Assembly (NCBI GenBank): GCA_032718475.1
Contig: JAUCBJ010008868.1
Coordinates: 23,248-87,247, forward strand
Length of the DNA: 64,000 bases
Source: Nemertoderma westbladi
Lineage: Eukaryota; Animalia; Xenacoelomorpha
Direction of reading: 5' to 3'
Shown: piece by piece, positions 41,853-64,000 of the stretch
Position numbering within the stretch: the first letter of the stretch is position 1
Layout: the number at the start of each line of letters is the position of its first letter
Notes under the pieces: model-generated
Told to the model about the DNA's origin: nothing
Databases searched by the model: none
Seen by the model: the letters and a program-made list of their open reading frames with translations, nothing else
Made by a program: the position numbers and the translations under genes

Positions 41853-43762
41853 AAGTTTTGTGATTCTGTGGTTCTTTTGAGGGACCCCTGCCACGCACTG
41901 GTCCCGTTGCCATCGTTACCATTAGTACTCGTAGGTCCATTATGGTAGACCGAATGTTTATTTGGATCCAGTTTTCTGTTCCCGCGCCTGTAGAAAACAT
42001 TTAGTAGTCAGCAGATATATCATTATTGCATTAACTACCAATGAGAGCCAATCTCCATTAAATTCAGCTCATGATAGAATAAAAACGTTTTTGTCAATTT
42101 CCAAAATAGGGAGGTGCCCCCCCCCCCCCCCCCCCCCCCCCTTAAATTACCCTAGACCTCACGAAGATATATGCCAGGTATTAATCAGCTCAGGATTATG
42201 AACAAGGAAATGGCAGGTTTTGTTTTCATTTGGCGCGCAGCATAATTATTATATTCGGGAGAAGTCCTACTTCACTAATTCATTATCAACGTTAAAACAA
42301 TCTGTTTTTTTTTAATAGCCGCTTATTATGTAATAAATTAACAGATTTTAACAATATTTTATGTGCGATACTGCGATATTATAAGAGTGACACAGAGACG
42401 GCTGAATGAAACTGTGGCAGATCAAATGCTCGCTGGTACATGAGTAATAATTATACTAGCAATAGTTTTGCGGTAATTTGCAATGACAGAACAACGCGCG
42501 GAGGTTGCGTGGAAAATTTTGTAAGAAAGAGTGTGTCAGTACAGTTAGCTGAAAATTTTTTGAATATAGAAGTAGTCTTTTATGCAATACACATACTGTA
42601 CATGTGCGAACAGAGTGGTCCCTTTATGGAATTCTTTACCAGGAGAAGTAGTCGATTCACGTACCTAAAAAATGTTTTGTACAAATCTGAAAAACGTTGA
42701 TCTACTAAGTAAGGTTTTGCAAGTTTAATCGTTTTGATGAATAATATTATATTACAGTACATTGATTTATCTTATATTACATTAATATACAATGGTGCTT
42801 TTTTTCGTTGTAATTTTAAAAGTGTTGATTTACATTAATTACATGTGGCAACAGTTACGTTTATGGTAAATACTGTCATACTCTATGTAAAAATCATCGC
42901 GGCCTCCATAGTGCTATGCCTGGACGGTCTTCTCACATGCATACTGAAACATACTAACCTGCGTTTGTTTAATACTAATAATAATAAATAGAAAAGGAAA
43001 ATATGTCGACGCAGTACTGCAGTACTGTACAGTACCGGTAATGTTTAATAAAGACGCATGGAACCAGAAAATGTGCTAATATATTGTTGTACCAGTATGT
43101 ATATCATTTATTGAAGCCCATTTCTGCATTTAGTTCAGCCAACAATAAACAGCGGATATGTGAATCAAAATATTAAAATTATAGATGTCAGGATCTCAAT
43201 GATATATTTAATTGATGAATGAATATATACAGTATATGTTGAATATTTTTATAGGTGGTAAATACCACCACTACCACCCCCTTCGGTACGCCCTTGTCTA
43301 TAGCGGCAGTTTGGAAAACCCCACGTGGTTAAAAAAAATGGCGTAAAGAAATGGGGATTTTGTAGAGAAATCGGAGGGCGTTTATTGTTTTTCCATATTT
43401 CGAGTCTAGTGTTTAGTAGACATTCATTAATTTCTACAAATTTTCATCTCGCATATTTAAGAATCCGCCAACAACGTGGCTCGCTCCCATTGTGTAGCCT
43501 ATGATGAAGAGTGAAGTTTCCCATACTGAGGTAAAATGTATACTATTGCTGAAAAAAAATGGTTTTATATAGCAGATAGGGAGGCTGTTAATCCCTCACC
43601 AGCTGTATCTAAAAACATTGATGAATTATTTCACTATAAGGTAGCATTTGTAGTTTAACTTTAACGTAAAAACTTTCGAAAATCCGACGCATTTTGATTA
43701 AGTTACAGTAATGTATTATGCCTATTCATATTTGTACACATAAAACCCTTAGGTACTCTCGT

Positions 43763-43833
43763 GGCGTAGTGGTCAGATGGTTAAGGCGTTGGTTACATTA
43801 CAGATAGGTTACGAGTTCGAATCCCGGTCGGGA
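43763..43833 (+). promoter_or_regulatory. tRNA-like Pol III internal promoter module within 5' LTR
   Basis: A-box-like GTAGTGGTCAGATGGTTAAGGCG and B box GAGTTCGAATCCC at tRNA spacing. Stems are imperfect, so not a functional tRNA. Confidence 0.65.
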
Positions 43834-43881
43834 AATTTGTATTTTGGGGCCATTTATTTTCATTTGGTGCTAATTGGTGGA

Positions 43882-44193
43882 CCAATGAGAAGCGTACAAC
43901 GTAGCGAAAGATGAGCCAGGCCAATCATGGGGCATAAATTATCTTATTGCTCAAATGTGAGGCTATGGAAAATTCTGTTAGGATTCCATGTCCCAGATTA
44001 GTGTAAGGGCCGGATTGCGTTGAACGATGAGCTGGACCAATCATAGGGCACAAAGCACTTTATTGCTCAAATGTGAAGCTGTGGAAAATTCTGTTTGGTT
44101 TCCATGTGCGATATTTAGTATAAAAGGCCGGTTTGCCTTCGGTTATCACTTCTTACTGCCTCGTTACCCCTTCTTAGTACGTTATTAATTAAA
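43882..44193 (+). promoter_or_regulatory. LTR Pol II promoter: CCAAT boxes, TATA, Inr and candidate poly(A) signal
   Basis: CCAAT at 43882, 43921 and 44037. TATAAAA at 44119-44125. Inr-like TCACTT at 44146-44151, with the A 29 nt after the TATA start. ATTAAA at 44188-44193 followed by a GT/T-rich tract. Confidence 0.6.
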
Positions 44194-46894
44194 TTGTTAT
44201 TTAGTTTATTTGGTTTCTTGTTGAAACTTTGTTTGATAAATCCTTTGTAAAACTGTAAATATACTGCAAATTCCTGAACATGTTTTCTTTTGGTCCAACT
44301 TTGGGACAGCCAAACATCGGGAAGATGGCAGCCTAGACCGTTAGGCCGTCAGCAACGCAGGGAAAAGATGTCCACAACACGCTAGCACCCATATTGGTTC
44401 GACCGCGCACCCCCTTTGCCCTTCGAAATACTCCACTTGCCATGCAGCGCCCGCTTCGTGAGAAAGGTAAGACTTTGTTCGACGCCCTTGCCCGCCGTAA
44501 GACCTATAAATCAGGGTAAGCGTGACGCCGTCCTGGACGCCGCAAATTTAGGATCAAATAGTTATATTTAGACAGGACCCCCCCCTTTGTTATGTCCTAC
44601 GAACCCCTGGGTTAACCTGTACTTCCTACAGGTGCGAACTATTGCCATTCGTCAGTACGTGAGTACATAGGTACGGACAGCATATGTTCCATAATTTAGT
44701 GATTCGTAGTACTGACTGTTTGGTACCGGTTCGCTTTGTAGAACGTACATTAGTACCCCCCCCCCCCCCCCCCCCTGTCTGGAGTTAGCTATTTGATCAG
44801 GCAAGGAGTATTTCTGCTACCGGCACACTGCTTGGCCTAGGGAGGTTTATTAATATCCTATCGCGCCTTGCCACGTACTGATAGGTATTGCTGCTAACTA
44901 CCGCAGCAACAAAGTTCTAGAATTAAATTAGTATACCAGATCAGCTAACGTACGGTAGCGATTAACCCCTATTTCTTATCTTACAACCAGAATCTGGTAT
45001 TTGTGCCGATCACGGGTGTAGTTACTAACACCGTGGTTGCCCATTGGGTTGTGGATAGGAAGGAGAGAGCTTTGACGTCATTTGTGAGTATAAAGTTCTA
45101 CAAAACGCGACTAGTTTATTTTAGTAGCTAGCGCACGGTATCATTTCGGTCAGAAAATCACTAAAACCTAGTAAAAGGAAATACACGAAATTGTTTTATT
45201 TGTAACACACCCACATACACACGCCCTAAAACATATTCGCCCTTAGAGTTCTACTAGCTATAGCGCACTATATATTACTTTAGGCAGAATTTATCTGTAT
45301 TTGTAAATTAGGATCTGATATTTAGTTGCGGTAAGAGAGAGTATTTCATTTTCGTTATTAAACTGTTGGTTCCTGTTCAGCAGTATTGTTACATTTAGGC
45401 CTGACCCTTTAGACTGATTTCGTACAGGGGGATCAGTTATCGTTACATTTAGGCACGACCCCTTCTCGACTGATTTAGGACTGAATCAGTGTTGTTACGC
45501 TAGGTCTGTTAACCCACTAGCTCGTATATAAACCATATAAATCACACCGTGGCAAGTTACTGTATTTAGGACTGTCAGTGATAGTTAGGATTCGCTGCGC
45601 GGGGATTGTTTTCCCGTGAGTTTGGTCTGTTACTGTAACTGTACATCTGCCTCACCGGTTAGAGGACAGGTATCCTTTTGTCTAGTTTTGTAGGCATTAG
45701 ACCCGCTCACGTACATAGAATAGATACTAGGCTCTGTTCCAGTAGTCGTTTGTGTATTGTATCTGTTTGTTTAGATATCCTGGACTGGGATTTGTTGTCA
45801 GATACTGTATGAGCCCGTATACATTACTAGAGTCTCATAGTAAGATACATCGTTACTAGGATCTGGTAAGCGGTATACTACTGGACCTTACAGTAGGAAG
45901 TACTATATAAATTAGTGTATAGTATTGTTTAGATCTGTACGCTTTGTAGTGCGTGCGCACAGTAGGAAGTACTATATAAATTAGTGTATAGTATTATTTC
46001 GATCTGTTAGCTATTGAAAGTAGGAGATATTTAAAATTTAAGGTTAGTAAATTTAGTAATTTAGAACGTCCCCTGCTTCAGTAGGCTTTTAGGGTAGCTA
46101 GTACTTTTGTATTTAATATTTGACTAGCTAACAGTTAGTTTGTAGTACTTTGTTTTACGCCGTGTGTGTGCGGTGTTACTTTCGGTACTTGAAAAGGTAC
46201 ATAGGGTTTAAAGACCAATTTGTATCGGTACCTAGGAAGATTTTTCGTAAGCGTAGAAGTAAAACTCTCACCTTCGACTTTTCAGGACTCAAGGACTCAT
46301 TTCTGGACCGCTTCGAGGATTAGACCGCTTTTCGCAAAGTTTGGGAGACAATAAATTCGTCCGCGCCGCCGAAAAACGGAACGACCCACGTCCGGTTTGT
46401 ATTTGGGAATTTGCATGACTGGAAGATCAAAGGAACATAAGTTTTACGACTCGCGTCGTTCAAACTTAAGAAAGCACAGTAGTACTCAAAATTTGTGGGT
46501 TTCCTGTCTATTAGTAGTGTTGTTGGTACTTATTTTCCCGTTAGACGTTGCTGTTTTGCCTATTATTCGTACTTGTTGATCTATATTTTGGTAACGTATA
46601 CCGTTATCTCATTTATTCGTACAAATTTAGCCGGTAGGCTAGATTATTACTTATTTTATTGTATACTTTGTTAGTTTATTTGTACCGGTTAGGGTATATA
46701 TATGATATATATATATATCAAGGTAAGTTTGACATTTGTACATTTCGACATTTTGACATTTCGACATTCTGACTTGTTGATTTATTTGTACCGGTTAGGG
46801 TATATATATACTATATATACCAAGGTAAGTTAGACACTTCAACATCCAGACACTTTGACATTTTATTACCCGTACTTGACGTATATAATAAGAC

Positions 46895-49800
46895 ATGAGT
46901 GACACACCCCATTCAACGAGATACCCACCTACCGACTATGACTCGTGCGACCCGGACAGATCGACAGTAGACGAACCGAGAAGGAGAACCCGAGATTCCA
47001 CCGATGTCACACCGCTTGCGTCGCCGGTACCCAGAACGGAAATACCGGAAGCCGCAATGCGTGGCGACGGCAGAATCGAAGATTTCCTTACCGTCCCGCA
47101 GACTAGATCGCGGGAACCGGACATGGTAAGTTCGACTGGAAGCCAGGAGAACGTTATTAGAAGTATAGGAGGACACATGGCCCAGATTACTCGGAACCTC
47201 GGAGAAGGTTTTCGCGTTTTACGCGAGTTAACCACCCCGATGTCGAGATACGAGTTCTACACCTTACAGGTAAGGATAGAAAGTAGGGTACATGCTTCCG
47301 TAGATAAACTTAGAGGTTTACACGAACTTGCAGAGTTGCGTGGCGACAACTTTACTCAGGTAAAGATAATAGATAAATTAGTAAGTGCGAGAGAAAGCAT
47401 TATCCAGTTTAAGTCAGTAATAAGATTGTCTCAACAGGAGCAGTTTGACCAACTGCTAGGTGAGTCAGTTTCGGACGCGTTGTTACAACCCGAAGAGGAA
47501 GAAGAACTCTACTGCCTGGATGGAAGGTTGGAAACGCTCACCAATTTTCTTCGTAGATGCGGCGTACCGATCGACGAACCGGAAGTCGAATCGCGAGGGA
47601 CGACGGAAGTTCTTACTACGGAAGGCTCGCGAGCCTACCAGCATCCACCTCTGGATAGATCGTTCGTTAGCATACAGAGCGACGTTGGCAACGTTGGCGA
47701 CGTTAGTAGAACAGCGTCTGTAATTACTCGACAACAACAGGAGGTTGCACGCTGACAACAAGTCGCCGAGGAAGAAGCGCAACACCAGATGGCACAGATC
47801 GCCATCGAAGGAGAGAAACAACATAGAGAGGACGAGGCGAGAATTGCGCAACTCAAGGCGCAAGCCGAATTCGAAGCTTCGGAAATGCGCAGATTGGAGG
47901 AAAACTTAGCGCAAGAAGCAGCCGCGGCGGCGGCAGCCGACGAGCTAGTACGAGTTGCGGCGGTAAACGCAGCTGAGTTAGCACGGAAGAAGGCAGCGTC
48001 TGACGCTCGTGCTAAGTTGGAGGCACGACAAATAAACGCTCAATTAGCTATACAGGAAGCGGAGTTAGCGGCACAACAACAAGTAGCAGATCGACGCGAA
48101 AGGGAGATGCAACTACAGTTCGAACTGAATCGTAGATCGCGCGAGGCAGCGAACGCGCAAGCGGACCTCGAACTCGACGCGAGAGATAGATCTATAAGAT
48201 CGCGAGCTGGACACGACTTGTCTGCCCTGGATCGCATGGAAGCTCGATATCGCGGAATACAGAAGCGGATCGAGGAAGGAAGTGTGGGAGCGATAGATCG
48301 AGGAGAGGAGTTCGTCGAGGATTACTATAAACGTTTTCCCCAAGTTATTCCTATGCTCAAGCCCACGACTTCGATAAAACCGGTCTTTGTTACGAAACCT
48401 AAGGAAATAACGCCTGTGCGTTCGACGCAAGGCAACAGGTTTGTTGTGACGGAAATACCGCAACCTAGGGCGACCTCATCGCCAATTTTAGCAGGTAACA
48501 TAACTAGTCCACCTACAGTAAGTCGTAGTCTACTTGTAGGAAGAGAGGAACCTGCGTTTATGACCATTAAACAGGTGAGTAAACCATTACAAGTTAAACC
48601 TGTGACGTGCTGTGCAAATCCAGTTATTTATAGACCGACTACGGAACCCGACTATTTCACTCGACCGTTGACACAATGTTCGATGCAACCTACGACTTCG
48701 TGGAAGGCTTGCGAGCCTACCGAACTACGGAGGATGGATGTGGGTAGTACCCACGGGATCGGACAACGTATAACGAGACCTACGACTTCGTGGAAGGCTT
48801 GCGAGCCTACCGAACAACGGAGAGCCGTAGATTCTGGACCACAACGGACGAGACCAAGAATAATACGCCGGACACGAACCCGCCAGCCACCTTATCCGGA
48901 TGACAGCGACTCATCTAGTGACTCGGAGTCGACGGAACGGGAAATTCTCTGTTCTCTGGCAACGCGAAACACTGGCGCACACTGGTAGACTACGTAGAGT
49001 CCCAGATCGCTAAGTGTGCTTTCACCTCGACGGAGAAGTTTAATTACTTGCTCCAAGTTCTGTCTGGTGAGCCGAAACGATTAGCGGAAACCTTCATAGG
49101 TGTTCCCGATGCCTTTGAGTTGGCGTACAACCGTTTATATTCGATTTACGGAGGTAACGTCGCCATGGCTAAATCCATTATTGAAGACCTCTGCAGAGGA
49201 GGCAACATTTCGAAACCGATCGACCTTTTACAACTCGCGGACGAAATCAAGAACGCTATAGGGACTTTACGATCTATTGGACAACTCGAGTACGCTAACG
49301 CACCGACGGTTCTCATTCGAATAATCGGTCGACTTCACCATCGACTCCGACGAGAATGGCGACGCATCGAGTACCAGCGTGAAGAGGCCGGAGGGTTATT
49401 AAAACTCACCGATGTCTATCAACTGATTTCACGGGAGGCCATGATCGAGACTCGATCGAACTATACCGATCACCATATCGCGGCGGAAGGGATAGCTATT
49501 TCTGCGCCGAATCGGACCAAACCACTTCCGACGAACGCGAAAGCCGTTACTTACGCCACCCCTACTGAGACTTCTAAAGTTCTGACGCCTATCGGCACCA
49601 CGCAGCCACGACAACAGTTGCCGGCGGACTTTGTGGGATGCTCATACTGCGAGCGGAACGGCAGAAACCACGTGGATACATAAACTACGTGGATGTCGCG
49701 CTTTTAAAGAGTTAGGGATCGAGGAGAGGAGACTCCAAATCCGATCTCTAGATTCCTGTTGGAGATGTATGAAGCCAGGACACGTCCGGAAGGATTGCCC

Positions 49801-50026
49801 GAGCGACGATACATGTTCTCTGTGTGGACGTAACCATGACGCGTTGCTTCACACAACTAGTCATACTCCGACCAGACGCTTTCGACGAGAGCATCCAGAT
49901 AAAGCGGCTAGATGCGACACGCTTTATAAGGAGCGTGCGCCGCGCGAGATCCGTACCTTTTATACAGACTGTATGGATCAGTCAGGATCATCGGACGAGG
50001 ACGGGGAGGAAGACGACACTTTCTAG
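46895..50026 (+). pseudogene. gag: BEL/Pao gag, disrupted (ORF pieces 46895-47755, 47789-48988, ~48950-49683, ~49670-50026)
   Basis: Ala/Glu-rich coiled coil; capsid-like FSGNAKHW...EKFNYLLQVLSG in a shifted frame; Zn motifs CSYC..HKLRGC, CWRCMKPGHVRKDC and the BEL-typical CSLCGRNHDALLH. In-frame TGA at 47753, frameshifts near 48945 and 49670, TAG at 50024. Confidence 0.85.
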
Positions 50027-51241
50027 GTGCATGCAGGTGAGGAACAGCCATCGATAACGCTCCTCACACAGAACCAACTGAAAGGGTTTAGCGTGATTCC
50101 TATAAAGATTACCGGAACCCGAGGGAGCAAGCGTATATACGCCATCTTAGACTCTGCGTCATCGCATAGCTATGTCGACGAACAAGTAGCCGACGTAGTT
50201 ACGGACATGAGTCAAGGTAAGACTGCTCAGTATACTGTAAGTAGCATGCATGGTAAGAGAGCGATCCCTGTGACGAGAGTAAAACTAACTTTAGACACTC
50301 TTCTTTCCAAAGCAGAACACAGCAAGGAGGAGCGCTCATTACTTCTGGTAAGAAATTTGACCTTTGCAGCTACGAAGGACTTTAGTAACTTGCTCGGCCC
50401 TGTGCCAGAGCAATCACCGGAAGATCGTAAGTATTTCCGACACCTTGGAATACCGGAATGTCCTGTTAATTATCGTTCCATTGCGATGTTAATTGGGACA
50501 GACCAGTTTAACTTACATCAGGTATGGGAGACACGCCCATCTGTTATTACAGCGGGCAACCCCTACGCATGTAGAACTCCCATAGGTTGGTATACTAGAG
50601 CACCAATACGTTCACTAGAGGTAAGTGACCAGGAGGACGACGTTTTGAGTACGTGTAGTTTATTGACTAACACGATAGATAATTCTCCTTCACACTCCTG
50701 TGGTCCAATTGTACGGACGGCACTACGACAGACTTGCGTCACTAACGCAGACGCCACCGATACTGACGTAACCGATTTGGACACGACCACACGGACCTCT
50801 GACTTACAACTACTTGCAGTAGACCAGGTTGTATTGACTACTGAAGACCAAAGGGTTGTTGCCGTGGATGACTCGATGAATGAGGATTTTGGAAGGCTTG
50901 CGAGCCTACCGAAAAATCTGAAGGTCATTGACCCCACCCACCAGGCTTCGACACCGGTCGTTGATCTTGGAAGGCTTGCGAGCCTACCGACAGATCAAGA
51001 AGTTGTCAAACCGCCGCACGACGATTCGACGCCGACTAGTGACACCGGAAGGCTTGTGAGCCTACCAGACGCATTGACACTAGCCACCGCAGCGGACGAG
51101 GACGTGGACGAGGACCATGGCGCAGTGCAAGCAGCGCTTGACCGACTGCTGACTGAACGGACCATACAATGGTTGGAACAGGACTCAGCAGAACCCGGTA
51201 GTTACGAGACCGCTATGTCAGAACAGGAAAAACGGTCATAA
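50027..51241 (+). pseudogene. pol: Aspartic protease region of BEL/Pao polyprotein
   Basis: YAILDSASSHSY active-site motif (GAC at 50150), MLIGTD and RTPIGW motifs. In frame with the preceding and following ORFs, separated by single stops. Confidence 0.85.
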
Positions 51242-51247
51242 AATATT

Positions 51248-53830
51248 ATGAGAGATACCATTCGCCAGACCGCGAATGGCCACTATGAGGTTGGTATGTT
51301 GTGGCGCAATGGACAACCTAAGCTCGTTAACAATTACCCGCTTGCTTTGAGGCGACTCAAATCAATAAGGCAGCGATTGTTGCGAGACGAGACGGCCCAT
51401 ATGCAATACAATGCACAACTTCAGACGTATCTCCAAAAGGGATACGCCATTAGGATGTTAAATCCCGAGGTAACCACAGACCAGACATATTACCTGCCAC
51501 ATCATTTTGTTCGACACCCGGACAAACCTGGCAAGGTGCGTGTAGTCAACGACTGCGCCGCGCTTTACCAATGGATGTCTATGAATAGCGAACTGATGGA
51601 CGGGCCGAATATGAACAATAACCTCATGGGAGTCCTAATGCGTTTTAGACAACGCAAAGTGGCTTTCACCTGTGACGTAGAGGCCATGTTTCACCAGGTT
51701 AAGGCTTTGGAGCGGGACAGGGACAGCTTGAGGTTTCTTTGGTATCCGGACGGAAACTTACAACTTCCGCCAGAAACTTACCAAATGCAGGTAAGAGTAT
51801 TCGGAGCCAGGGACAGCCCCAACTGCACCATGTACGCATTAAAGCAGACCGCATTAGACAGACGAGACCAATTTGACCCAGAAATAGTTCGGACCGTGGA
51901 ACGAGATTTCTACGTGGATGACGGCCTCAAGAGTTGTGACACCTTGGAGCGCGCTACAACCGTAGCACACCAACTCCAGGATTGTCTCGCTGAGGGCGGA
52001 TTTCACCTGACGAAGTTCGCTTCCAACGAACCCGAACTGGTGAACTCATTTGACCCGACGGATCGCAGTGGAGGAGACTTAGACTTAGACCTAGAACCTC
52101 TGCCGACGACTAAAGTATTAGGACTTAGTTGGGACCCTAACACCGACAATTTTAGGGTACGTGTAAGGTCCAATGACCAGACTAGACCTCTCACAAAGAG
52201 GACTTGCTTATCGACCATGAGTCGATTGTATGACCCATTGTGTTTCATTAGTCCAGTGATCCTACATGCTAGGATCATACTCCACAGCATTTGGCAAGCC
52301 GGACTGGAATGGGACGACCCCATCCCAGAAAAGTTAGCTGAGCAATGGAGGGACTGGGAAGCCCAGCTGACGTTCCTACAAGACTATACCATACCGAGGG
52401 TATACTTTCTTTTGCAAACCACCTTTCCTGCCGATTTAGAGCTTCACAGCTTTAGTGACGCTAGCAAGGATGGATTGGGGGTTACTTTATACCTTAGACG
52501 ACAAGTGACATCGGACAGCTACGATGTATCTCTCGTTACTTCAAGGGCTAGAACAATGCCATTGAAGTATATGACTGTACCTCGTGGGGAGCTGCAAGCC
52601 GGGACGATATCCACCGATATTGTCAGTCTAGTTCAACGCGAGCTGGAGGCTAACTTGAAGGTCACATATTGGACGGATGCGACGTTGGTACTTTGGTACA
52701 TAAACAACGAAGCGTTTGAGTTCAAGACTTTCGTAGCCAACAGACGGGCTGAAATATTAGACCGGTCGCTCAAACAAGATTGGCGTCACTGTCCAGGGAA
52801 GCTGAACCCAGCTGACATCGCGTCACGGGGGATGCAACCGCTTGACTTTTGTAAACCGGACAATAAATCCTTTTGGTTTAGAGGACCCGACTTCCTACAG
52901 CGACCATCAGACGAATGGCCACCGTTATTCGACGCGACAACCAACACCATACCAGAGGGTGCCGAGATAAAAATCGACAAGGTTGTCAAGTCTAAAGCGA
53001 AAGCCAACGCCAAGGTCAAGAGGAAAAAAGGACGGACGAAATCTGATGACCTGGACGCTAGACCTGACATTACGCCAGACGTCTCACCAGACATTCGACC
53101 AGACGCTTGTACGAATCCTTCGCCGGATGTTCCGCGGGAGATTTCACCAGACGTTTCGCCAGATTGTTCACCAGATTACTCGCCAGATTATTCACCAGAA
53201 GCGACACCAGATTGTTCTCCGGACTGTTCGCCAGATTGTTTGATGGAACTCTCAACAGAATGTCTACCGGACGTCTCACCAGACTTTCCACCAGACATCT
53301 CGACAGACTGTCCACCAGACTGTCTACCAGACTTTGAACCAGACTTTCTGACAGAAGTTACGCCAGACAGACTTTGGGACAGACGACAAGACATTTCGCT
53401 GGATGTTCCGCGCTATGTCTTACCAGACGTCTCACCAGACTGTTCACCGGACGCTTCACCAGACTGTCTATTAGACACTCCATTAGAAGACCCATTGGAG
53501 CGGACCTTTAGAGACTTACCAAATTTGACTTCTTTGGACGACAGAGGTGTGGCCACAGGGATTACACTCCGCTCGAAGAAGGTACTTGACTTACCCCCTA
53601 CAGGTAAGCGTGTGACTAAGGTTAGGAAGCTTACAGGCTCACAGGAACACACTGACACTGTAGAGTTGAAACCGTTACTGCCAGTCGACACATTAGGTGC
53701 GGACGGTAAAGGTAAGACCGTAGAGATTGACGTACTTGGGAACTCAGACAAACCTACCGGAAGGCCCGTGGGCCTACCAAGTCCAGACAAGTATCCACAC
53801 TACGACTACACCTTACCTGATGTACGTTGA
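51248..53830 (+). pseudogene. pol: Reverse transcriptase + RNase H of BEL/Pao pol, with PDxS-repeat linker
   Basis: RT motifs CDVEAMFHQV, FGARDSP and YVDD (51911-51922). RNase H motifs HSFSDASKDG, PRGEL, YWTDAT and NPADIASRG. Frameshift near 53800. Confidence 0.93.
53062..53470 (+). repeat. Degenerate 12-bp coding repeat (CCAGAYNNNTCN; PDxS) in RNase H-integrase linker
   Basis: Translates as PDITPDVSPDIRPDAC...SPDVSPDCSPDYSPDYSPEATPDCSPDCSPDC... Confidence 0.85.
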
Positions 53831-54273
53831 CAGGATAGTGAACCTAACTAGATCATGGACTGACGCGTGCCGCAAGTTAGCATGGCTCAAACGTTTGAGA
53901 CAATATGCCAGAGGCAAACGCGACTTTCCTAGAAGACTTACCTTAAAGGAAGTTGGCCACTGTGAAGTTGATATCATTAGACATTATCAATTGCGATATT
54001 TCGCACGAGAATTCACAGCGATCAAACAAGGTAAACAGATTAAGTCTTCACCGATTTTGAGTTGGAGTCCGATTATTTACCGGGGCTTACTTTGTCACAA
54101 GTCCAGACTCCAAAACATTGACTTTGCACTTGACTTTAGGTATCCTATCATCATACCGCAACACCATGAATTACAGCGCGCTATGATACTGGACGCACAT
54201 GTACAACTCAAACACGTAGGTAGACACCACTGTCTATCACACTTACGCTCGAGGTTTGTACTGATTAGACCTA

Positions 54274-55708
54274 CTACTACTACTACTAGGATCGGCATGC
54301 TGCATTGCAGCTGCATTTTTAAGAATGCTGTGCCGGCTTGTCAACAAAATTGCACCGCCACAACTCCCTATCACCCATGACATTTGCTAGATCATCTGCA
54401 TCTTTAAGGCCAGTGTCCTTTAAGATGCGTCTCAAGAAAGTCACGGGCTGTCCACCATGCTTATTCACTCCATGAGGCTGCCAAAGTACAAGATTATGCA
54501 CTGGCTGGTCCTCACGGCGAAAGCAATGTCCTGCAAAGCGGAGGCGATTTTGTTCTAGTGTCAAGCTTGGGGGAACCAATGAGACACCTCCAATGTTATA
54601 TAGTGTCTGGTTGGAGATGTGTGCATTGTACTTGACACAATAAACTCGGCGTAGCATTCTTGTGAATGTGCCATCCAGAGATTTGGTGTCCTCAGCAGTT
54701 AGAGCCCAGCATGGACTCCCGTAGAGGAGTACTGGAACTACTGCTGCTCTAAATAATCGGACCTTAAGTTTCCGATTAATTCTAGGTGACTTCCAAATCC
54801 TGGAAAGCCTATTCAAGGCTGCCCATGCCTTTCCCTTACGTATTTGAAGGTCCTCACCTGACTTCCGGATCCATGATCCCAGGTAACAGAAGTCGTCCAC
54901 ATGCTCAAGCATACCATCCTTTGAGCTTATGCTCATCCGATCAGAGACTTGCTGAGGACTTTCAAAGTTAACTGTCAGAATTTTGGTCTTTCTGGAGTTA
55001 ATAAAAAGACCAACACTAGAAGCAGCATGTTCTAATGAGCTGAGGAGCCGTTGGGCTCCCTCTAATGATTCTGAGAGTACTCCTAAGTCATCAGCAAAGT
55101 CTAGATCAGTTAGGTACTTGGCAGGATTTCCTCGACTTCTGGAGCCAGTAGGTGGAGCTATCATCACCCCATCATCATTATGATGATCTAAGGACATGCG
55201 TAGAACATAGTCAACCACAATAATGAACAAGAATGGTGCAAGTGTGTCTCCTTGGAGGACGCCCCATAACACTTCAAATGGTTCTGTGTCACCGTCAACA
55301 GTAGACACAAATGTTGTCGAACCATCGTATACTGATCTGATTGCTGCAATAATTTCATCAGGAATCCCATATAATGAAAGTATGCTGAACATACGTGACC
55401 GAGAGACTGAATCAAAGGCCTTGAAGAAGTCAACAAAGATAACAGCCAGATGCCTGTCTTTCTTTTTTGACAATTCTTCAATTATCCTTCTAAGTGCCAA
55501 AATGGGCTCCATGGTCCCACGACCTTTACGGAACCCATTCTGATTTCCACGGAGCAGTCTCTCAATGGGATCCCTGATGCGATTTAATAGAATCCTATTG
55601 TATAGCTTTGCAGCAATCGAGATCAATGAGATTCCCCGAAAAGAACCATAGAGTGTTAGGTTGCCCTTCTTGGGAACTGGCACCAACTTATTTGTTTTCA
55701 TTTCATTT
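54274..55708 (-). mobile_element. 5'-truncated RTE-like non-LTR retrotransposon inserted antisense in the integrase
   Basis: 13-bp TSD CTGATTAGACCTA (54261-54273, 55709-55721), (TAG)6 tail on the minus strand and a ~30-bp 3' UTR. Confidence 0.92.
54319..55690 (-). CDS. Non-LTR reverse transcriptase, N-terminally truncated (no endonuclease)
   Basis: PVPKKGNL, FRGISL, QNGFRKGR, FVDFFKAFDSV, GVLQGDTLAPFLF, LDFADD and FCYLGS motifs; open to the stop at 54319. Confidence 0.9.
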
Positions 55709-56566
55709 CTGATTAGACCTAGTAAGGCACTGAGTTCGGTAACACGGAACTGTATTATTTGTAAGAAGGTGCACGCGAGGATAGGACACCAAGAAATGAG
55801 TGAACTACCACTAGCTAGATTACAGGCGTTTAGACCCCCTTTCACTGAGACAGGGATAGACTGTTTTGGACCCATAATCGCGAAACGCGGAAGGGTACAG
55901 GTAAAACGTTGGGGATTGATCTTCACTTGCATGGCCAGCAGAGCTGTCCATATAGAGCGAGTGACAGACTTGACCACCAATGCCTTTATCCTAGCCTTAC
56001 GGCGATTTATCGCTAGACGTGGATTGGTCAAATCCATATACTGCGACCAAGGGATAAACTTTGTGGGTGCACGGAACGAAATAACCAGAGCTTTGAGAAA
56101 ATTGGACCAAAACCAGATTTCCGAGGAACTACGTCCTCACCGTATTGTTTGGTATTTCAATACTCCAGACAGTCCGTGGAGAGGCGGCGTTTGGGAAAGG
56201 CTGATTGGCTCAATAAAGACAGCTATGGCTAAAGTCGTACCGACGCAACACATCTTGACAGACGACCAACTGACGACGTTACTAATAGAAATCGAAGCAA
56301 TCTTAAATACTAGACCGATCGCTTTGATCCCAGACAATAACGACGTACAGTTTGCCTTGACACCAGCGCACCTGCTTATGCAGGCGCCGACGACATTGTT
56401 GCCCATTTCGGTACCCGTTGATAGTGACGGATACGGCAACAAAGCTTGGAAAATCACTCAATTGCTTGCAAATAAATTCTGGGAAATATGGCAGAAATAT
56501 TATTTGCCCTCTATTTCGACCAGAACCTCTTGGTATCTAAATACCCGATGTTTAAGACGTGGTGAC

Positions 56567-57743
56567 CATACCTAAAGAGGTGAGGTCTCTATAAGGGTGT
56601 GGTCAACAGGCGGCGGCGGACTCGTGAGGGTCTGGAGGCACGTTAAAGTACCACGTAAGTGCAAGGGAGATACTTAAGGCCCTTGTGTCTAACGAACCAT
56701 GAATCGACATGGTGCCGTGATCCGTCTAGTCGGCCTGTTGCCGTATTGCCAGTCCTGTACACAGTAGGGGTGGTGGCATGGTGTGATTTGTGGTTCATGT
56801 GGCGTGAACTATGTTTTGTATGTGGGCGATCAGTGGCAGTTTGCTTGGGGCTTGGATGGGTTCTTTTGGCCATCAGCTGTTCCGTTTTTTTGATACTATA
56901 TGTTATTGTCTCCATGTTCAGCTGATTGGTCTTTGGGATTTGTTCGGGTCTTTAAGCTTTCTGTTGCTGTGGGTACGTGAGTACACGTGATTGTATGTGT
57001 GGCCACTGCGAGTGAGTATGGGAACCCTTGCCAGTTGGACCAGACGCCGCTGGTATTAGTAGGACCATATCTCTACTGCGCCCCAGCATACTTTGTGCAC
57101 ACAAAGTTATTTTGCCCTGACGGCAAAATAAGGTACTCTCGACTCTTTATGAGTTGATACAATTTTGTCCCCTCTGATTTGACCCCGATTTTGTCTTTCA
57201 TGATTATGTCTTCTGTGTGTGCATGGTATGTGTTCGATTTTGTGCTTACCATTGTGTACTTGATTTTGTGAACATCTGTTGAGTACACGTGTACAGTAAA
57301 CTGGTAAGTGGTTACTTGTTCAGTAGCTTTTGAGCTACAGACAGTATTGTCTTTTCAATATTGCCGGCGAGGCAGGTGAAAACGAGTCAAAATTCCATGT
57401 TGGGTAGCGCAAGCCCACGTGGGACAAGACCGTCGGTTAGGCCCAAGGGCGACCTTGGTGCTCGATCGCTATCGACTGGTCCACCTGCCGGTTGACTCTT
57501 TGTTATACTTTTGAGTTGGCTCAATGTACAGTCAGGCCACAGTAAGTTGACAGTAGCCGCCCATCTGGCTACACGTTCGACGAGCTGTGCCGGTGTGATC
57601 GGGGGACCGAAAACAGAACCCGGGAAGCATCGGGCCACCCTCCGGCCCGGTCTGATAATAACATCAGTCAGACTGGCCCCAGGGGTGGTGGAAACACGTC
57701 CGCCTCGTGGGTGCGCCTCCAGGAGGAGCCCATAAGGACGAAA
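56567..57743. mobile_element. ~1.18 kb non-coding insertion of unknown type in the integrase C-terminus
   Basis: Interrupts LRRGD|AVLLAE. No long ORF and no obvious TSD or terminal repeats. GC-rich ends are reminiscent of LINE 5' UTRs (inference). Confidence 0.7.
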
Positions 57744-58451
57744 GCGGTTTTATTGGCTGAAGCTAATCTGAAAAGACGGTTTTGGCTGACTGGAGTCATT
57801 TTGACCACGCACCATACATCTGGTGTAGTGAGGACTGTTACTGTAAGGACTATCGACGGACGTACCGTAGACAGACCTGTACAACGTCTCGTGCTCCTTG
57901 AGGAGACTAGAAACGAGACAGGAGACTACAAATCTCTACCCAATATTGGTAAATAGATGTGGGACCTTGATTGGCCGCCACATAGACCTACTGTATTTTA
58001 GTTATTTGTATTTGTATTACTGTACGTGCATTTGTAATCCTCTTCACTGTAGATAGAGACAGCGGTGGAATTCCATTGTCTTTATACGTGAACATGGAGG
58101 GTAGTACCCTTATGTATCACATAGGTGCGGGATTGTGTGTACAGTAGGAATGGAATTCCACTTGGAACCCACAAGTGAGACAATTTTTCAAAAATTATTA
58201 GACAAATCCATTTATTTGGATTTAAATTTGAGAAAAACGATTCTCCAGTGAAAGCAAATTCTAGAATACAGCTAGATAAAAATTAAAATTAGGGAGGACA
58301 AGAGCGGATGGAAGGCTTGCGAGCCTACCGATAAATTTTTTTTGGAAAAAGAAAATCGGCCTTGTTCTACGTAGTCGTGTCTACTATTATTTAGACCAAT
58401 TAATTCTCGACTGCACTATTTTTCTTGGGAAATGTAGCATGGGAAATTAAA

Positions 58452-58653
58452 AGGTGAGTATTTTAGACTCGCGGCTAGTTTACCCGGAATTCGTTTTTTA
58501 TCGGCACATTTTTTGGATTAGGAGCCAGTGCGAAATCACGCGAACCCGAAATCATTAGGCAAATGGGTTGGGGTTTAGAGCAGAGTTGAGCCAAAAGCCG
58601 ACAAACTCTAAGTCACCACCTCACATCTAACCTCTATTTTGTGCTTCATCTAG
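58452..58653 (+). promoter_or_regulatory. Candidate splice signals upstream of the accessory ORF
   Basis: Donor AG|GTGAGT at 58452-58459. Branch point CTAAC at 58627-58631, pyrimidine tract, and TAG acceptor at 58651-58653, 42 nt before the ATG. Confidence 0.5.
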
Positions 58654-58695
58654 TAGAAACGTAATGATATGTAACCACATATATATTCGTATACG

Positions 58696-61600
58696 ATGGA
58701 GAAGATGTATAAAGAGTTACGTCAAGGGTTTACGCAAGAACAAGAGCACCAGGCGCCATTCAATCGTTATGGAGCTAAAAACTTTAGTGTGTTTGGAGTG
58801 GAGAGTATGGCTAGGAGTACGGCCAAGCTCGCTAAATCCAAGGTGGACCCGAATGTTACGCGACAGCGGTTGGACGCATACAACAAAAGAACGGAGGAAT
58901 TACGCGCGGAGTTCAATGCGTTATATCCCTACGATGCGTTATGCGACGCTAGCGACATTTGCGAGGATCCAGACACCGAAATACGCCGATTGTATCATAC
59001 GCTGCAATATTTGACGGTAAACGAACCCTTACCTGCAGCTAGAGACGAATTTGAAGGAATGCATCTTTATAGACGCGCTCGAGGAGCGGATCCAGAGACC
59101 AAGGACGCGTTCTCCATATACAAACTGTTTTATAAATGTGGAGCGTGTATGCGCGAGCAAGACAACGCGATTCCTATGCAGTTGAACTCGGAGAACCCCG
59201 AGCCGATATTAGCGCGATGTTCACACCACCAAAGTCTATGTTACCAAGAAGGCGGATACCCTTTGACAAATCCGTATCATACGTTTAAAATGAGTGGACT
59301 GAACGCGGGTGAGATCGTTATTTACGAACCCAAATTAGTCGAACCAGACGTCTACAGCATGGTAGTGGACGAGTCTAATAAGTCGACACAGGAGAAACGG
59401 GAAGCTTTGAGCCTCTACAGGGCGTACAAGGCGTACGAGAAAGGCAAGATCGAGGAGTTCGGCGGAAGGCTCGCGAGCCTACCATTCTATTGGATATCCC
59501 ATGATCAAACCGAACCCAAGGAGATGACACCAGAGCTCTTCGATAGTATCACCTTTGCTCAGCGTTTGTCGCAGAGACTACAGATACCTCATGTCGAGAT
59601 GACGCGAGAACCTCAGCCCCATTCTACTGGAGCGATAGTACCGGTTGCGAGACCAACTAGTTTTCCTATTAGTATACCGACCCGGAAGGAGACAACTTAC
59701 GAGATCCCTATAGTTGAACACCCGGAGATCATCTCGAACCTGGATTTCCTCCCATCGGTTACCTTCGGTGATGTGTTAGAGTCAGCTGAGTTGCGTAAAG
59801 TAATAGTTCAAAAAATCGTACGCAATGTGCCTCCACATATTACGGACTTTAAGGAAGTGGATCGCGCGGGGACGGATATCGCACCTTGTATCTTGCGAGG
59901 ATACCTGACGAAGTCGATTCGATTATGGATCGGAGTTGGAACGTTTGAGACCGACACCGATATCGCGACCAATTGGACCGGTAAACCTATTAGTTTCGAT
60001 GATGAAAAGTCGATTGGGAGAATTTGGAACCCTACCGACGATTTACTCGACGATTGGGACGTGACTAGCCGATCTCTAAAAGAGAATGGTTATATGTTTT
60101 ACGATAATGAAGGAGGAAGCCATCAGCAAAGCCTCACTTCAAAGACTATACAGATTAGAGCACCCGATGGCGTGTTACATGTCTTCAGCCGACAGAGGAG
60201 TGATAGGAAGATGCCTATGCCGGAAGGAACGACGCAAAGACACGCGATGATAAAACGGATAGTTAAATCCATGGACCTGGCTTGTAGCATAGAAGCTAGG
60301 ATGTTGCCAAAGGCCGTGCGAGACGTTGTGTTGGATAAGAGCATCGTCAAGATCGGATCCGGTGTACGGGATGACCTTATTAGCGACTTTGCAGGGATGC
60401 CCACGGAAGAGGACCGATTGCCTACGCCATACGTGGATACTAGACCATTGTTGCTTTGGGCTATTGAGCAAGGATATTTTAGGGAGTATAACACGCTAAA
60501 AACTGGGACGGGTTATATCTCATATCTAATGTTCAGTTGGGATTACAAGGAGAGTAAGAGGAACAAATACACGGACGTATACGGAGAGGGAGATACCCCC
60601 GGCGTAAACGAGTTCGAGTCACAGTTGAAGTGGCGAGGTTGCGTGTATTGGGCGATTACTTCACCACCGCGGATAATCTTGCAATACTATTTAGCGATAG
60701 AATCTTCGGTTAACGTTTGTTTCATCGCGGACGTAGTATCCAGAACCCTAAAGCGACACCCGTTATGTCTTGGCGAAGGACATACCTTTTACGATGGAGG
60801 AAGGACGCATACTGATGTATTCCGACGATTTCTCCAACCCTTTTATAACACCGATGCGCACTGCGAAGTTTTCACGCGAGCGGGACTTAGCGTTTTCAGG
60901 GACGTCTATCTCACTCACGCGGGAAGTCTAGTCGACAGACCGTCGATGTTAACGTTAGTACCCTATGACGGGGAACGCCACGCGGAATTCGAACACCCGG
61001 AAGGATCCTGGAAGGCTCGCGAGCCTACCGCCCATCACGACGATGTGGATCCGACCGAGTTGGCGCTAATAGACGAACCGTTACGGCAACTCATAGAGAT
61101 AGAGGAGAACCTTCCGAGGAAGACGCGAACTGAGATACGCAAGTTGGAGAAAAGCGATGCCATGGTTTGTGTACAACCTACGGAGACGAACATACCGACT
61201 GACCCGGATGATGAGAATTATCATGTGGACGGTAGCGCTCGCCCCATCGGAGATCTCATCTATGAGCGAGTTTGGTATCCTGCCAACACTATTTGTGGCA
61301 GATGCGGAGCAACTGGCCATCACGCAAAGAAGTGCGGAGCGAAGCACATATCTCTACCGGATTTAGTATGCAACTGGTGCGGGGATCAGCATTCGCACAC
61401 TTTCTACACTTGCTGGCGTTTCGTGGCGCAGTGTACTTATTGTAATATTAAGGGCCAGAGGGCATCCGAATGTCAACTTAGAGACGTCCCCTATGAGCAC
61501 ATGTCAGTTAAAATCGTTCGACAATTATTCGACCATTGGGAGGACTTAGCAGACGAGCATGTATCGACGCAGCGACGCCGCTTCCCTATGAGAGCACATT

Positions 61601-62448
61601 TGGGATTTTGGGCCGTAAACCCTCTCATAATGTCAAAGGAAGGATATGTATCGGCTATGCCTCAGTATGATGAATTGTTGGAGGTATTGGATATATTGCC
61701 GTTGGACAGTGGATTCAAAGTTGTGCGGGACTATTTCTTACAAGTGCACCCCGACAACAAGAATACTTGGAACTTTCAAACTGTGGTGAACAAGATTACC
61801 GCCGGAGAATTCGATAAACTGCGAGTTGAACAGCGGAATCGAGGAGCCTGGCATTCGATAGCTTGGGCATACCGGAGCGCTTTTTATCACAAACGCGTAA
61901 CCTCGTGCATTCTGGACGAGACCGACGTTTTGCGTGAGACTGGCTTCAAAGCCACGCCGTTAGCAGAGAAGACGCGTCACCCACAGGATGATCAGCAATT
62001 TCGTATACTCAAAGCCCAGAAGGCCGGACAAGAGATTAAGAAGATAGTAAATGTCGCCGAGAGGACGACATCGAAGTCGCAAATCCGGATGACTCGGGGC
62101 ACGGTTTCCCTTGCTAGAGAACCACGCGGAGGGACAGGATACGCTTTGACTGAACCCATTAGGATTCAAACGACGTCAGAGAGTGAGGTGTCAATGGACG
62201 GAACGGTCCTACCCTTTCGACTTCCTCCTAGCGTTGTAGAGACTCGATCCGATGTTAAGCCGACAGTTGGAATCGGACGAGGATTTAGAGGATTGAGCGC
62301 ACGACGGATGTGCGAAACTCCCGTCGTCCCCTTTCCTAGCGTTTTGGAACCACCGACGACTCGACGCCGAAGTCCGAGCCCAGTTCGACCTCGACCACCC
62401 CCCAATCGCACTAGAGGACGTGGACGAGCCCGCTCAGCGAAGGAATAG
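58696..62448 (+). CDS. Accessory ORF of the LTR element: 1250 aa, putative DEDDy 3'-5' exonuclease domain + CCHC zinc knuckles
   Basis: Uninterrupted 3753-bp ORF between integrase and 3' LTR. Motifs YMFYDNEG (ExoI), TIQI, LPKAVRDVVLDKSIVKIGSGVRDDL (ExoII), YVDT and W...QYYLAIE (ExoIII-like). CGRCGATGHHAKKC plus two variant knuckles, and a basic R/P-rich tail. The ORF is certain; the domain call is by motif recognition. Confidence 0.8.
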   Translation: MEKMYKELRQGFTQEQEHQAPFNRYGAKNFSVFGVESMARSTAKLAKSKVDPNVTRQRLDAYNKRTEELRAEFNALYPYDALCDASDICEDPDTEIRRLYHTLQYLTVNEPLPAARDEFEGMHLYRRARGADPETKDAFSIYKLFYKCGACMREQDNAIPMQLNSENPEPILARCSHHQSLCYQEGGYPLTNPYHTFKMSGLNAGEIVIYEPKLVEPDVYSMVVDESNKSTQEKREALSLYRAYKAYEKGKIEEFGGRLASLPFYWISHDQTEPKEMTPELFDSITFAQRLSQRLQIPHVEMTREPQPHSTGAIVPVARPTSFPISIPTRKETTYEIPIVEHPEIISNLDFLPSVTFGDVLESAELRKVIVQKIVRNVPPHITDFKEVDRAGTDIAPCILRGYLTKSIRLWIGVGTFETDTDIATNWTGKPISFDDEKSIGRIWNPTDDLLDDWDVTSRSLKENGYMFYDNEGGSHQQSLTSKTIQIRAPDGVLHVFSRQRSDRKMPMPEGTTQRHAMIKRIVKSMDLACSIEARMLPKAVRDVVLDKSIVKIGSGVRDDLISDFAGMPTEEDRLPTPYVDTRPLLLWAIEQGYFREYNTLKTGTGYISYLMFSWDYKESKRNKYTDVYGEGDTPGVNEFESQLKWRGCVYWAITSPPRIILQYYLAIESSVNVCFIADVVSRTLKRHPLCLGEGHTFYDGGRTHTDVFRRFLQPFYNTDAHCEVFTRAGLSVFRDVYLTHAGSLVDRPSMLTLVPYDGERHAEFEHPEGSWKAREPTAHHDDVDPTELALIDEPLRQLIEIEENLPRKTRTEIRKLEKSDAMVCVQPTETNIPTDPDDENYHVDGSARPIGDLIYERVWYPANTICGRCGATGHHAKKCGAKHISLPDLVCNWCGDQHSHTFYTCWRFVAQCTYCNIKGQRASECQLRDVPYEHMSVKIVRQLFDHWEDLADEHVSTQRRRFPMRAHLGFWAVNPLIMSKEGYVSAMPQYDELLEVLDILPLDSGFKVVRDYFLQVHPDNKNTWNFQTVVNKITAGEFDKLRVEQRNRGAWHSIAWAYRSAFYHKRVTSCILDETDVLRETGFKATPLAEKTRHPQDDQQFRILKAQKAGQEIKKIVNVAERTTSKSQIRMTRGTVSLAREPRGGTGYALTEPIRIQTTSESEVSMDGTVLPFRLPPSVVETRSDVKPTVGIGRGFRGLSARRMCETPVVPFPSVLEPPTTRRRSPSPVRPRPPPNRTRGRGRARSAKE

Positions 62449-62482
62449 AAAGCGAGTGGAAGGAAGGCTTGCGAGCCTACCG

Positions 62483-62561
62483 ATTTGGATATTATATTTG
62501 GATATTATATTTGGATATTATATTTGGATATTATATTTGGATATTTATATTGGACATTATG
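62483..62561. repeat. 13-bp tandem repeat (ATTTGGATATTAT), about 6 copies
   Basis: Directly visible in the 3' UTR between hairpin copies at 62462 and 62598. Confidence 0.85.
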
Positions 62562-63095
62562 TTTGAATGTTGGGTTTGGAGGAGCGAGATATGGAAAGGA
62601 AGGCTTGCGAGCCTACCGTTAACAATTAGTGCTCAGGAGAAGATATCCAGACCAGCAGGACGAACTTTTAAGATCGTCAGGAGGACTCTTTAAGACTTAT
62701 TTGAAAGTTATTAGCGCATTGTGTTTATATTATATTTGAACTGATTTAATTTGGTGAAGGTTTATTATGTATATTTACAATATATAAAGATTTATCGAAA
62801 GAGTTACAATTATTTGTTCGATTTGTTTTGATTTATTTGTTCTGATTTGTTTAATTTGTTTATCTTGATAACCGAAAGCCTTTTTTGTATTTTAGGCACT
62901 AAAGTTAATTAGTAAATTTGTATTTGTATGTACGATCGATTGTATTTACGCCGTATCTGCAATATTAAGTATGCAATAATTAGATAGTGATTATATTTTA
63001 TATTTTAGGCCCTACCAGTAGATTTAGAAGTAGCTTGTAAATATTTTATATTTCGATTGGTGAAAACAGTCTTACTTACTGTTTTCATGGAGCGG

Positions 63096-64000
63096 TGATG
63101 AATTATTTCACTATAAGGTAGCATTTGTAGTTTAACTTTAACGTAAAAACTTTCGAAAATCCGACGCATTTTGATTAAGTTACAGTAATGTAATATGCCT
63201 ATTCATATTTGTACACATAAAACCCTTAGGTACTCTCGTGGCGTAGTGGTCAGATGGTTAAGGCGTTGGTTACATTACAGATAGGTTACGAGTTCGAATC
63301 CCAGTCGGGAAATTTGTATTTTGGGGCCATTTATTTTCATTTGGTGCTAATTGGTGGACCAATGAGAAGCGTACAACATAGCGAAAGATGAGCCAGGCCA
63401 ATCATGGGGCATAAATTATCTTATTGCTCAAATGTGAGGCTATGGAAAATTCTGTTAGGATTCCATGTCCCAGATTAGTGAAAGGGCCGGATTGCGTTGA
63501 ACGATGAGCTGGGCCAATCATAGGGCACAAAGCACTTTATTGCTCAAATGTGAAGCTGTGGAAAATTCTGTTTGGTTTCCATGTGCGATATTTAGTATAA
63601 AAGGCCGGTTTGCCTTCGGTTATCACTTCTTACTGCCTCGTTACCCCTTCTTAGTACGTTATTAATTAAATTGTTATTTAGTTTATTTGGTTTCTTGTTG
63701 AAACTTTGTTTGATAAATCCTTTGTAAAACTGTAAATATACTGCAAATTCCTGAACATGTTTTCTTTTGGTCCAACTTTGGGACAGCCAAACATCGGGAA
63801 GATGGCAGCCTAGACCGTTAGGCCGTCAGCAACGCAGGGAAAAGATGTCCACAACACGCTAGCACCCACATTGGATCGACCGCGCACCCCCTTTGCCCTT
63901 CGAAATACTCCACTTGCCATGCAGCGCCCGCTTCGTGAGAAAGGTAAGACTTTGTTCGACGCCCTTGCCCGCCGTAAGACCTACCGTATAGATCAGGGTA
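63096..64000 (+). repeat. 3' LTR (truncated by window end)
   Basis: Second copy at offset 19477, preceded by a short purine-rich tract GGAGCGG (weak PPT candidate). Confidence 0.9.
63240..63310 (+). promoter_or_regulatory. tRNA-like Pol III internal promoter module within 3' LTR
   Basis: Same module as 43763-43833 with one substitution. Confidence 0.65.

Follow-up and report, generated by a model that had tools for sequence, protein, structure and literature searches.

The stretch of DNA analysed here, hereafter the window, comprises 64,000 nt of the forward strand of Nemertoderma westbladi (Xenacoelomorpha) contig JAUCBJ010008868.1 (positions 23,248 to 87,247; GenBank assembly GCA_032718475.1). 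It contains a long terminal repeat (LTR) retrotransposon which, judged by its domains, is a BEL/Pao element and in which two parts occur together: an array of twelve near-identical copies of a 20-nt quasi-palindrome, predicted to fold as a hairpin, and a third open reading frame (ORF3) downstream of gag and pol. Both parts are real and unusual. That the ORF3 protein reads the hairpin is put forward tentatively, by analogy with other systems.

Sequence and predicted form of the hairpin array

A search with the pattern GGAAGGCTYGCGAGCCTACC, allowing up to three mismatches, returned 12 sites in one orientation, against a mean of 0.00 and a maximum of 0 in 100 dinucleotide shuffles (Table 1). The original prediction had reported a hairpin set and an accessory ORF in the same element, and this is borne out, with 12 sites and an ORF open over 1257 codons (58675-62448) inside one BEL/Pao element. 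The five hairpins that it had named are all present (58310, 59464, 61010, 62462 and 62598), including the one located 13 nt past the ORF3 stop codon, which ends at 62448. Seven further copies are found in gag-pol. No copy is present in 1-47619 or in visible LTR sequence, the first being located 4 kb from the element start, and relaxing the scan to 6 mismatches added just two unrelated sites with 6 mismatches.

Among the 12 copies, 16 of the 20 motif columns are invariant, and conservation falls to 4-8 of 12 just outside, which gives the motif a sharp edge. Nine of the copies are located in coding DNA. As these fall in all three codon phases, the constraint acts on nucleotides, and a protein-level cause of the motif is ruled out. 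The copies sit in local duplications (spacings of 90, 78, 78 and 136 bp) and in low-complexity linkers; they are related through duplication, so that the variant pattern represents few independent events. The best evidence of selection on the hairpin is a decayed 78-bp tandem, in which the three copies are identical at 19-20 of 20 positions inside the motif versus 20-27 of 58 in the flanks; short-tract conversion is a possible alternative here.

The predicted hairpin has a stem of 2 and then 5 pairs, separated by an A.A mismatch and capped by a YGYG loop, with predicted stem probabilities in the local context of 0.86-0.96 for nine copies and 0.48-0.66 for three. All variation preserves RNA pairing (96 of 96 cells paired, with one compensatory pair and one C-G/U-G pair), and 6 of the 8 pairs are invariant. 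Positions 9 and 11 are occupied by C or T, varying in 10 cells; G stands at their mirror partners, positions 12 and 10, in all 12 copies. An RNA reading is favoured because G-U wobble allows C or T opposite a fixed G, whereas such an asymmetry would not be expected of a symmetric DNA site; the hairpin is thus likely to be an RNA signal, and its folding in RNA is inferred. All 12 loops fit the YNMG or YNUG classes, which are described in passages of PMC5633025 as those tolerated at the protein-bound domain d of the enterovirus oriL. Both the A.A mismatch and the letters of the stem are fixed more tightly than pairing requires, which points to a protein as the reader.

Outside the element, no Rfam family matches the hairpin; one snoRNA match (E 0.14) was weak and was rejected. 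The motif scan gave 0 matches in viral contigs. Two single matches in metagenome contigs, with no similarity past the motif, and two in 596 Gb of prokaryote genomes, where about 2 are expected, were dismissed as chance. Peptides encoded by the motif were found in 0 of the 120 BEL/Pao pol relatives listed (37-43% identical), a comparison of proteins only and hence no test of co-occurrence.

ORF3 and its predicted protein

ORF3 is intact, and no transmembrane segment is found in its protein. The predicted splice signals at 58453 and 58652 fit a separate spliced message. Within the databases searched, ORF3 is an orphan by sequence. A word search with residues 330-800 yielded 6331 candidates, of which 0 were homologous, phmmer with residues 8-1137 gave 0 homologs among 1.84 billion representatives, and none were found in PDB sequences, plasmids (tblastn) or viral contigs. 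The whole ORF has no match in Pfam, and parts of it give only sub-threshold matches to zinc knuckles.

A WRN/EXD2-like region of the DEDDy type was tentatively assigned to residues 473-677. A profile built from 121 bacterial WRN/EXD2-like proteins, with a seed confirmed against the WRN and EXD2 structures, ranks ORF3 at the top of 622 sequences, with 6.6 bits as compared with 2.2 for the highest-scoring of 500 shuffles. The hhalign comparison of ORF3 with this profile gives an E-value of 0.0011 over 98 columns at a probability of 20%, and the match is centred on the Exo II motif. This motif (K.G....D, with D567) is placed in register without a gap by hmmsearch, hhalign and MAFFT; the candidates for Exo I (D-x-E; D477/E479) and Exo III (Y-x3-D; Y672/E676) are by-eye placements only. 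In the Atlas, residues 340-790 match unnamed fungal clusters at a score of 0.92 and, at 0.91, a cluster set named 'Werner syndrome-like exonuclease', which accounts for 24 of 30 hits and carries PF01612 on 38% of its members. A structure model of the single sequence has a pLDDT (predicted local distance difference test) of 31; seeded with WRN-like rows it reaches 54, and its best Foldseek match is to EXD2 (E 0.036), a circular result.

Three zinc-knuckle-type motifs follow in the same protein and resemble zf-CCHC. The third (residues 920-933) has no His in this copy, and other family copies differ at that codon. A further Cys/His cluster in the N-terminal part (59137-59241; residues 155-158 and 182-189) is possibly a zinc site. 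The original prediction spoke of an RNA-binding nuclease: RNA-binding-type modules, namely the exonuclease-like region and the zinc knuckles, are indeed indicated, whereas the fold points only weakly to a nuclease, as Exo II alone aligns objectively. Since MAFFT does not reproduce the by-eye placements of Exo I and Exo III, the DEDDy-like domain may either retain activity or have lost it, as PMC5408684 describes for EXD1 and Maelstrom.

Contigs from four runs were aligned to 46000-64000, where summed depth does not equal copy number. In run X1, summed depth reaches 33-66 thousand across 46000-53812 and 23-31 thousand in the interior of ORF3; the corresponding values in run X4 are 26-48 thousand and 19-25 thousand. 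The family contigs range down to about 86% identity. The element is clearly a member of a high-copy family, and ORF3 is a standing part of this family, as its interior is deeply covered by contigs. Of 12 listed differences in ORF3, eight affect the third position of a codon (p 0.019), a value that is subject to a biased choice of rows, with 40 of 1236 differences listed. Inside a hairpin, 0 of these 40 are located where about 0.5 are expected, so that the count is uninformative. A stretch of 3062 bp of ORF3 (59256-62317) and another of 228 bp (58963-59190) are skipped by contigs in runs X3 and X4; these contigs represent an amplified deletion derivative. Run X6, whose nature as RNA is a guess, has no coverage across 59222-61024 and is uninformative on expression.

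Extra ORFs of the DEDDy type are known from bdelloid rotifers, where passages of PMC5408684 describe them in the LTR elements Vesta and Juno and among Athena/Terminon ORFs. The rotifer ORF3 is located behind pol, usually as a separate spliced unit, and its activity is proposed there, not demonstrated. Because such third ORFs are known from Vesta and Juno, the ORF3 protein described here would be a new case of a known capture. Compared by description only, the rotifer clades are not BEL/Pao, and their motif is DEED, whereas the motif here is at best D-E-D-E by eye. ORF3 of this element is 1257 residues long and has knuckles, and the passages give no cis repeat for the rotifer ORF3s.

Candidate readers of the hairpin

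Two features may count for a link between the ORF3 protein and the hairpin: two rare traits, the array and ORF3, would have come together in one lineage by this reading, and ORF3 appears to contain modules of an RNA-binding type. Passages on Egalitarian (10.1101/2025.08.03.668247) report that its DEDDy domain binds stem-loops, including those of K10 and the I-factor, and that catalysis is not needed, and TbRND (PMC7797062) combines a DEDD domain with a zinc finger. The likeness to ORF3, drawn from description, is that of a DEDD-type domain in RNA binding; Egalitarian and TbRND are in contrast host proteins, and the targets of Egalitarian are longer and diverse in sequence. In the proposed mechanism, ORF3 would be made from a spliced or internal transcript, and the hairpin would fold in RNA. 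The knuckles would contact the G-rich loop, while the DEDDy-like domain would contact the stem as the EXO domain of Egalitarian does. Multiple bound sites would coat the genomic RNA of about 19 kb and the ORF3 message, and this coating would protect or export element RNA, in a logic like that of Rev and its response element (RRE); the hairpins themselves have spread by local duplication. Tagging of all element transcripts fits better than packaging, because the ORF3 unit carries five hairpin copies and the 5' leader has none. An extended form of the proposal, which we consider doubtful, is a two-part self-recognition in which a captured DEDDy-exonuclease/zinc-knuckle protein is combined with a 20-nt RNA tag that recurs twelve times across the coding genes. 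Tagged RNA would be shielded or exported, and untagged RNA, that is host silencing RNAs or rival elements, would be left to or trimmed by the nuclease.

In complex retroviruses, the Rev protein is small and the RRE is a single large structured RNA element. The proposed logic is the same in that an element-encoded protein from a subgenomic message would bind a cis RNA signal, and the ORF3 product has an Arg-rich tail. Here, in contrast, twelve 20-nt hairpins are combined with a large protein, and the signals occur on the accessory message too. Instead of a single response element confined to unspliced RNA, dispersed copies were found, five of them on the ORF3 unit, and the likeness is therefore at most one of 'works like'.

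Several points weigh against reading by the ORF3 protein, which would be connected to the hairpin by inference only. No relative with or without the pair of hairpin and ORF3 was reached in the sequence searches of representatives and of viral, metagenome and prokaryote sets. The Gag of the element has a CCHC knuckle of its own, and a duplex model accounts for the loop pattern without an accessory protein: loop position 2 is always G and position 3 only C or T, a pattern that fits a self-duplex better than it fits a YNMG loop. The covariation amounts to one event and is not significant alone, as 40 of 500 shuffles reach the same level, and the folding energy is equal on both strands. The exonuclease assignment is itself weak, with no Pfam match. 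MAFFT puts no acidic residues at Exo I or Exo III, and automatic alignments place both motifs elsewhere. In the Atlas, a score of 0.9 is reached by 4-10% of shuffles, and 154 features are shared where 170 are typical of family members. Finally, copies without most of ORF3 have spread, since contigs that skip the 3062 bp occur in two of the four runs; this would be neutral if such copies are complemented in trans.

A strong rival, overlooked by the original prediction and in our view unlikely on balance, is that the motif is a multi-copy dimer-linkage or packaging palindrome of the RNA, refolded to an extended duplex with Gag as chaperone, and that ORF3 is an independent passenger. The duplex partner would be located on a second genome or elsewhere in the same molecule, and a genome of unusual length would thereby be dimerised and compacted. 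Like the dimer-linkage palindromes of Ty1 and retroviruses, every variant is self-complementary as a duplex except for two A.A mismatches, and the knuckle of Gag suits this role. Passages of PMC6844567 describe how SL1 of Ty1 (PAL1/PAL2) switches from a hairpin to an intermolecular duplex. For the motif described here, an extended self-duplex is likewise predicted, at -22.6 to -34.9 kcal/mol versus -15.2 to -19.2 for two hairpins, and the observed C-to-U loop variants (-30.7 and -28.2) are cheaper than the unobserved mirror variants (-24.7 and -22.9). These energies alone are not discriminating, because the duplex form is predicted to be the more stable one for long palindromes in general. By the same passages (PMC6844567), the Ty1 palindromes act as one or two sites in the 5' untranslated region, whereas here twelve dispersed identical sites are found, with none in the leader and no copy before 47620. 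The five copies on the ORF3 unit also speak against dimer linkage, and stem letters could drift if pairing alone mattered, yet 6 of the 8 pairs are fixed.

Quasi-palindromes are typical sites for dimeric proteins, and the motif might be a double-stranded DNA site of such a protein, encoded by ORF3 or by the host, through which silencing of the element is prevented in the manner of VANC; this is improbable. The original prediction had drawn the analogy to VANC of the VANDAL DNA transposons of plants. It holds in so far as a transposon-encoded orphan protein is present in both cases and, according to passages of PMC5735166, the VANC21 motifs likewise accumulate by tandem duplication in one orientation. 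It fails on the motif itself: the same source describes VANC motifs as short (9 bp), non-palindromic and mainly non-coding, whereas the motif here is a self-complementary 20-mer that is mostly coding (9 of 12 copies) and varies as an RNA would. As the VANC motifs share one orientation (PMC5735166), the common orientation of all hairpin copies was dropped as proof of an RNA signal. The element is not CpG-depleted (observed/expected 1.0-1.3 over 43619-63095, versus 0.46 in a nested non-LTR retrotransposon), as would suit an unsilenced element, but the host flank is likewise not depleted (0.90). Mirror-equivalent positions differ (9 and 11 versus 12 and 10), and no DNA-binding domain was recognised in ORF3.

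Recruitment of a host RNA-binding protein, such as an adaptor of export or germline transport, appears quite improbable. The hairpin would then act like a constitutive transport element or like the localisation signal of the I-factor, and ORF3 would act separately, for instance against small-RNA silencing or in 3'-end processing. Retrotransposon RNA is known to use host Egalitarian through a stem-loop (passages of 10.1101/2025.08.03.668247), and the DEDDy ORF3s of rotifers have been proposed for 3'-end processing without a cis partner (passages of PMC5408684). By the former source, however, Egalitarian signals are 40-65 nt long and diverse in sequence, unlike the 20-mer. A reader unable to co-evolve would account for the frozen sequence; the lack of an Rfam match speaks against a host signal.

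Quasi-palindromes can self-correct, and the local duplications and low-complexity linkers would suit a motif without any reader, which as a hot spot of template switching or conversion would multiply during reverse transcription and keep its copies homogeneous. This is very improbable, as the homogeneity stops exactly at the 20-nt edge, none of the 12 copies has had its A.A mismatch corrected to give a perfect palindrome, and the insertion of nine copies into coding frames without benefit is hard to expect.

The BEL/Pao element and what the pairing may mean

The element spans from 43619 to at least 63757 and is about 19-20 kb long. An overview of its features is given in Table 1.

Table 1 Coordinates of the element, its hairpin copies and ORF3 features in the window
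Feature	Position	Strand	Remarks
5' LTR	43619..44280	+	TG start; end uncertain, likely CA at 44280; repeat extends to at least 44519
gag region	46892..50026	+	DUF1759, zf-CCHC; stops or frame breaks near 47753, 48922-48988, 49586-49683, 50024
Hairpin copy 1	47620..47639	+	gag; loop CGCG; codon phase 2
Hairpin copies 2, 3 (48702, 48792)	48702..48811	+	90-bp duplication in gag; loop TGCG; phase 1
pol region	50027..57956	+	protease, reverse transcriptase, Peptidase_A17/RNase H, integrase, DUF5641; breaks near 51239, 53724-53830; two insertions
Hairpin copies 4-6 (50891, 50969, 51047)	50891..51066	+	decayed 78-bp tandem, protease-reverse transcriptase linker; phase 0; 1 mismatch at 51047
Hairpin copy 7	53759..53778	+	RNase H-integrase linker; loop CGTG; compensatory stem pair (C-G for U-A); 3 mismatches
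Nested non-LTR retrotransposon (LINE, long interspersed nuclear element) fragment	54274..55708	-	RVT_1, DUF6451; 13-bp target duplication; outside the system
1.18-kb insert splitting DUF5641	56569..57747		absent from some family copies
Hairpin copy 8	58310..58329	+	non-coding, upstream of ORF3
Predicted intron	58453..58652	+	GTGAGT donor; acceptor side with CTAAC, pyrimidine tract and AG; precedes the ORF3 start; sequence signals only
ORF3	58675..62448	+	1257 codons stop to stop; first ATG 58696; intact; Arg/Pro-rich tail
Hairpin copy 9	59464..59483	+	within ORF3; loop CGCG; phase 0
WRN/EXD2-like DEDDy region (putative)	60091..60705	+	residues 473-677; Exo II D567 gapless; Exo I D477/E479 and Exo III Y672/E676 by eye
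Hairpin copy 10	61010..61029	+	within ORF3; loop CGCG; phase 1
Three zinc-knuckle-type motifs	61294..61473	+	residues 874-887 canonical CX2CX4HX4C; 899-913; 920-933
Hairpin copies 11, 12 (62462, 62598)	62462..62617	+	non-coding, downstream of ORF3, flanking a 13-bp tandem repeat
3' LTR	63096..64000	+	up to 63757 if LTR is 662 bp; repeat reaches window end

Both copies of the direct terminal repeat, at 43619 and at 63096, begin with TG; they agree at 892 of 900 aligned positions, with one 5-nt indel between them. A 662-bp LTR (ends 44280 and 63757) is hinted at by TATA-like, T-rich and CA-end features, the terminal repeat itself being at least 900 bp; if this length is correct, the leader of another copy follows the 3' LTR, in a tandem array. 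No target-site duplication around the LTR element is visible in the window. As a candidate primer-binding site, a T-run followed by TGGTCC was found after the likely LTR end, and as a candidate polypurine tract just a short purine run ahead of 63096. A tRNA-like stretch was seen by eye within the LTR (43757-43830 and 63234-63307), where ARAGORN and Rfam make no call.

Gag is followed by protease, reverse transcriptase, RNase H and integrase in this order, with BEL/Pao-type domains and flanking LTRs. Pfam matches on gag-pol are DUF1759 (E 3.5e-10), Peptidase_A17 (E 8.7e-40), DUF5641 (E 1.8e-7) and zf-CCHC, with weak matches to RVT_1 and Integrase_H2C2. The best 120 of 494 pol relatives (E up to 1e-30) share 37-43% identity, and the named ones are from marine invertebrates and fish. 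PF05380 is present in all 120 listed, of which 119 were not placed on a tree. The LTRs, gag with DUF1759 and CCHC, the order of the pol domains, Peptidase_A17 and DUF5641 are shared with BEL/Pao (Belpaoviridae) in general. The profile of the International Committee on Taxonomy of Viruses gives a size range of 4.2-10 kb (PMC8742986), so that the present element is about twice as long. The third ORF, without a transmembrane segment, is not env-like, and a dispersed hairpin array is absent from the profile (PMC8742986). Passages of a BEL/Pao survey (PMC3118150) name only env as an extra gene. In the literature outside subscription papers, Repbase entries and supplements, neither an exonuclease ORF in BEL/Pao nor a dispersed array of identical hairpins in an LTR element was found.

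The gag-pol of this copy has at least 6 breaks and two insertions despite 99% identical terminal repeats, and ORF3 is open over 3.77 kb. At its observed/expected CpG ratio, long-term methylation decay has left no sign in the element. The 1.18-kb insert, in the C-terminus of the integrase, has a broken Cys/aromatic-rich frame on the minus strand with no Pfam hit; its coverage depth is similar to the rest of the element, yet some contigs skip it. The RNase H-integrase linker is lengthened by an in-frame 12-bp tandem (x-S-P-D-like units) at 53060-53460. Upstream of the element, about 550 copies of a 63-bp unit (about 37 kb) occupy 2100-41948 and run into an 867-codon ORF (39345-41948), for which Pfam matches are weak and repeat-driven (zf-nanos E 1.7e-5, no passing stretch).

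How animal retrotransposons distinguish their own RNA from that of the host and counter silencing by small RNAs is poorly known. The replication of BEL/Pao has been described as poorly understood (PMC8742986), and what DEDDy third ORFs do has been an open question ever since the rotifer report, as far as its passages go (PMC5408684). The element described here pairs a defined 20-nt candidate ligand, natural variants included, with a DEDDy-like protein, which turns the matter into a simple question of binding and reporter assays. Even if Gag or a host protein reads the hairpin, a frozen 20-mer in coding DNA and in three frames would, among LTR elements, be an unusual kind of cis signal.

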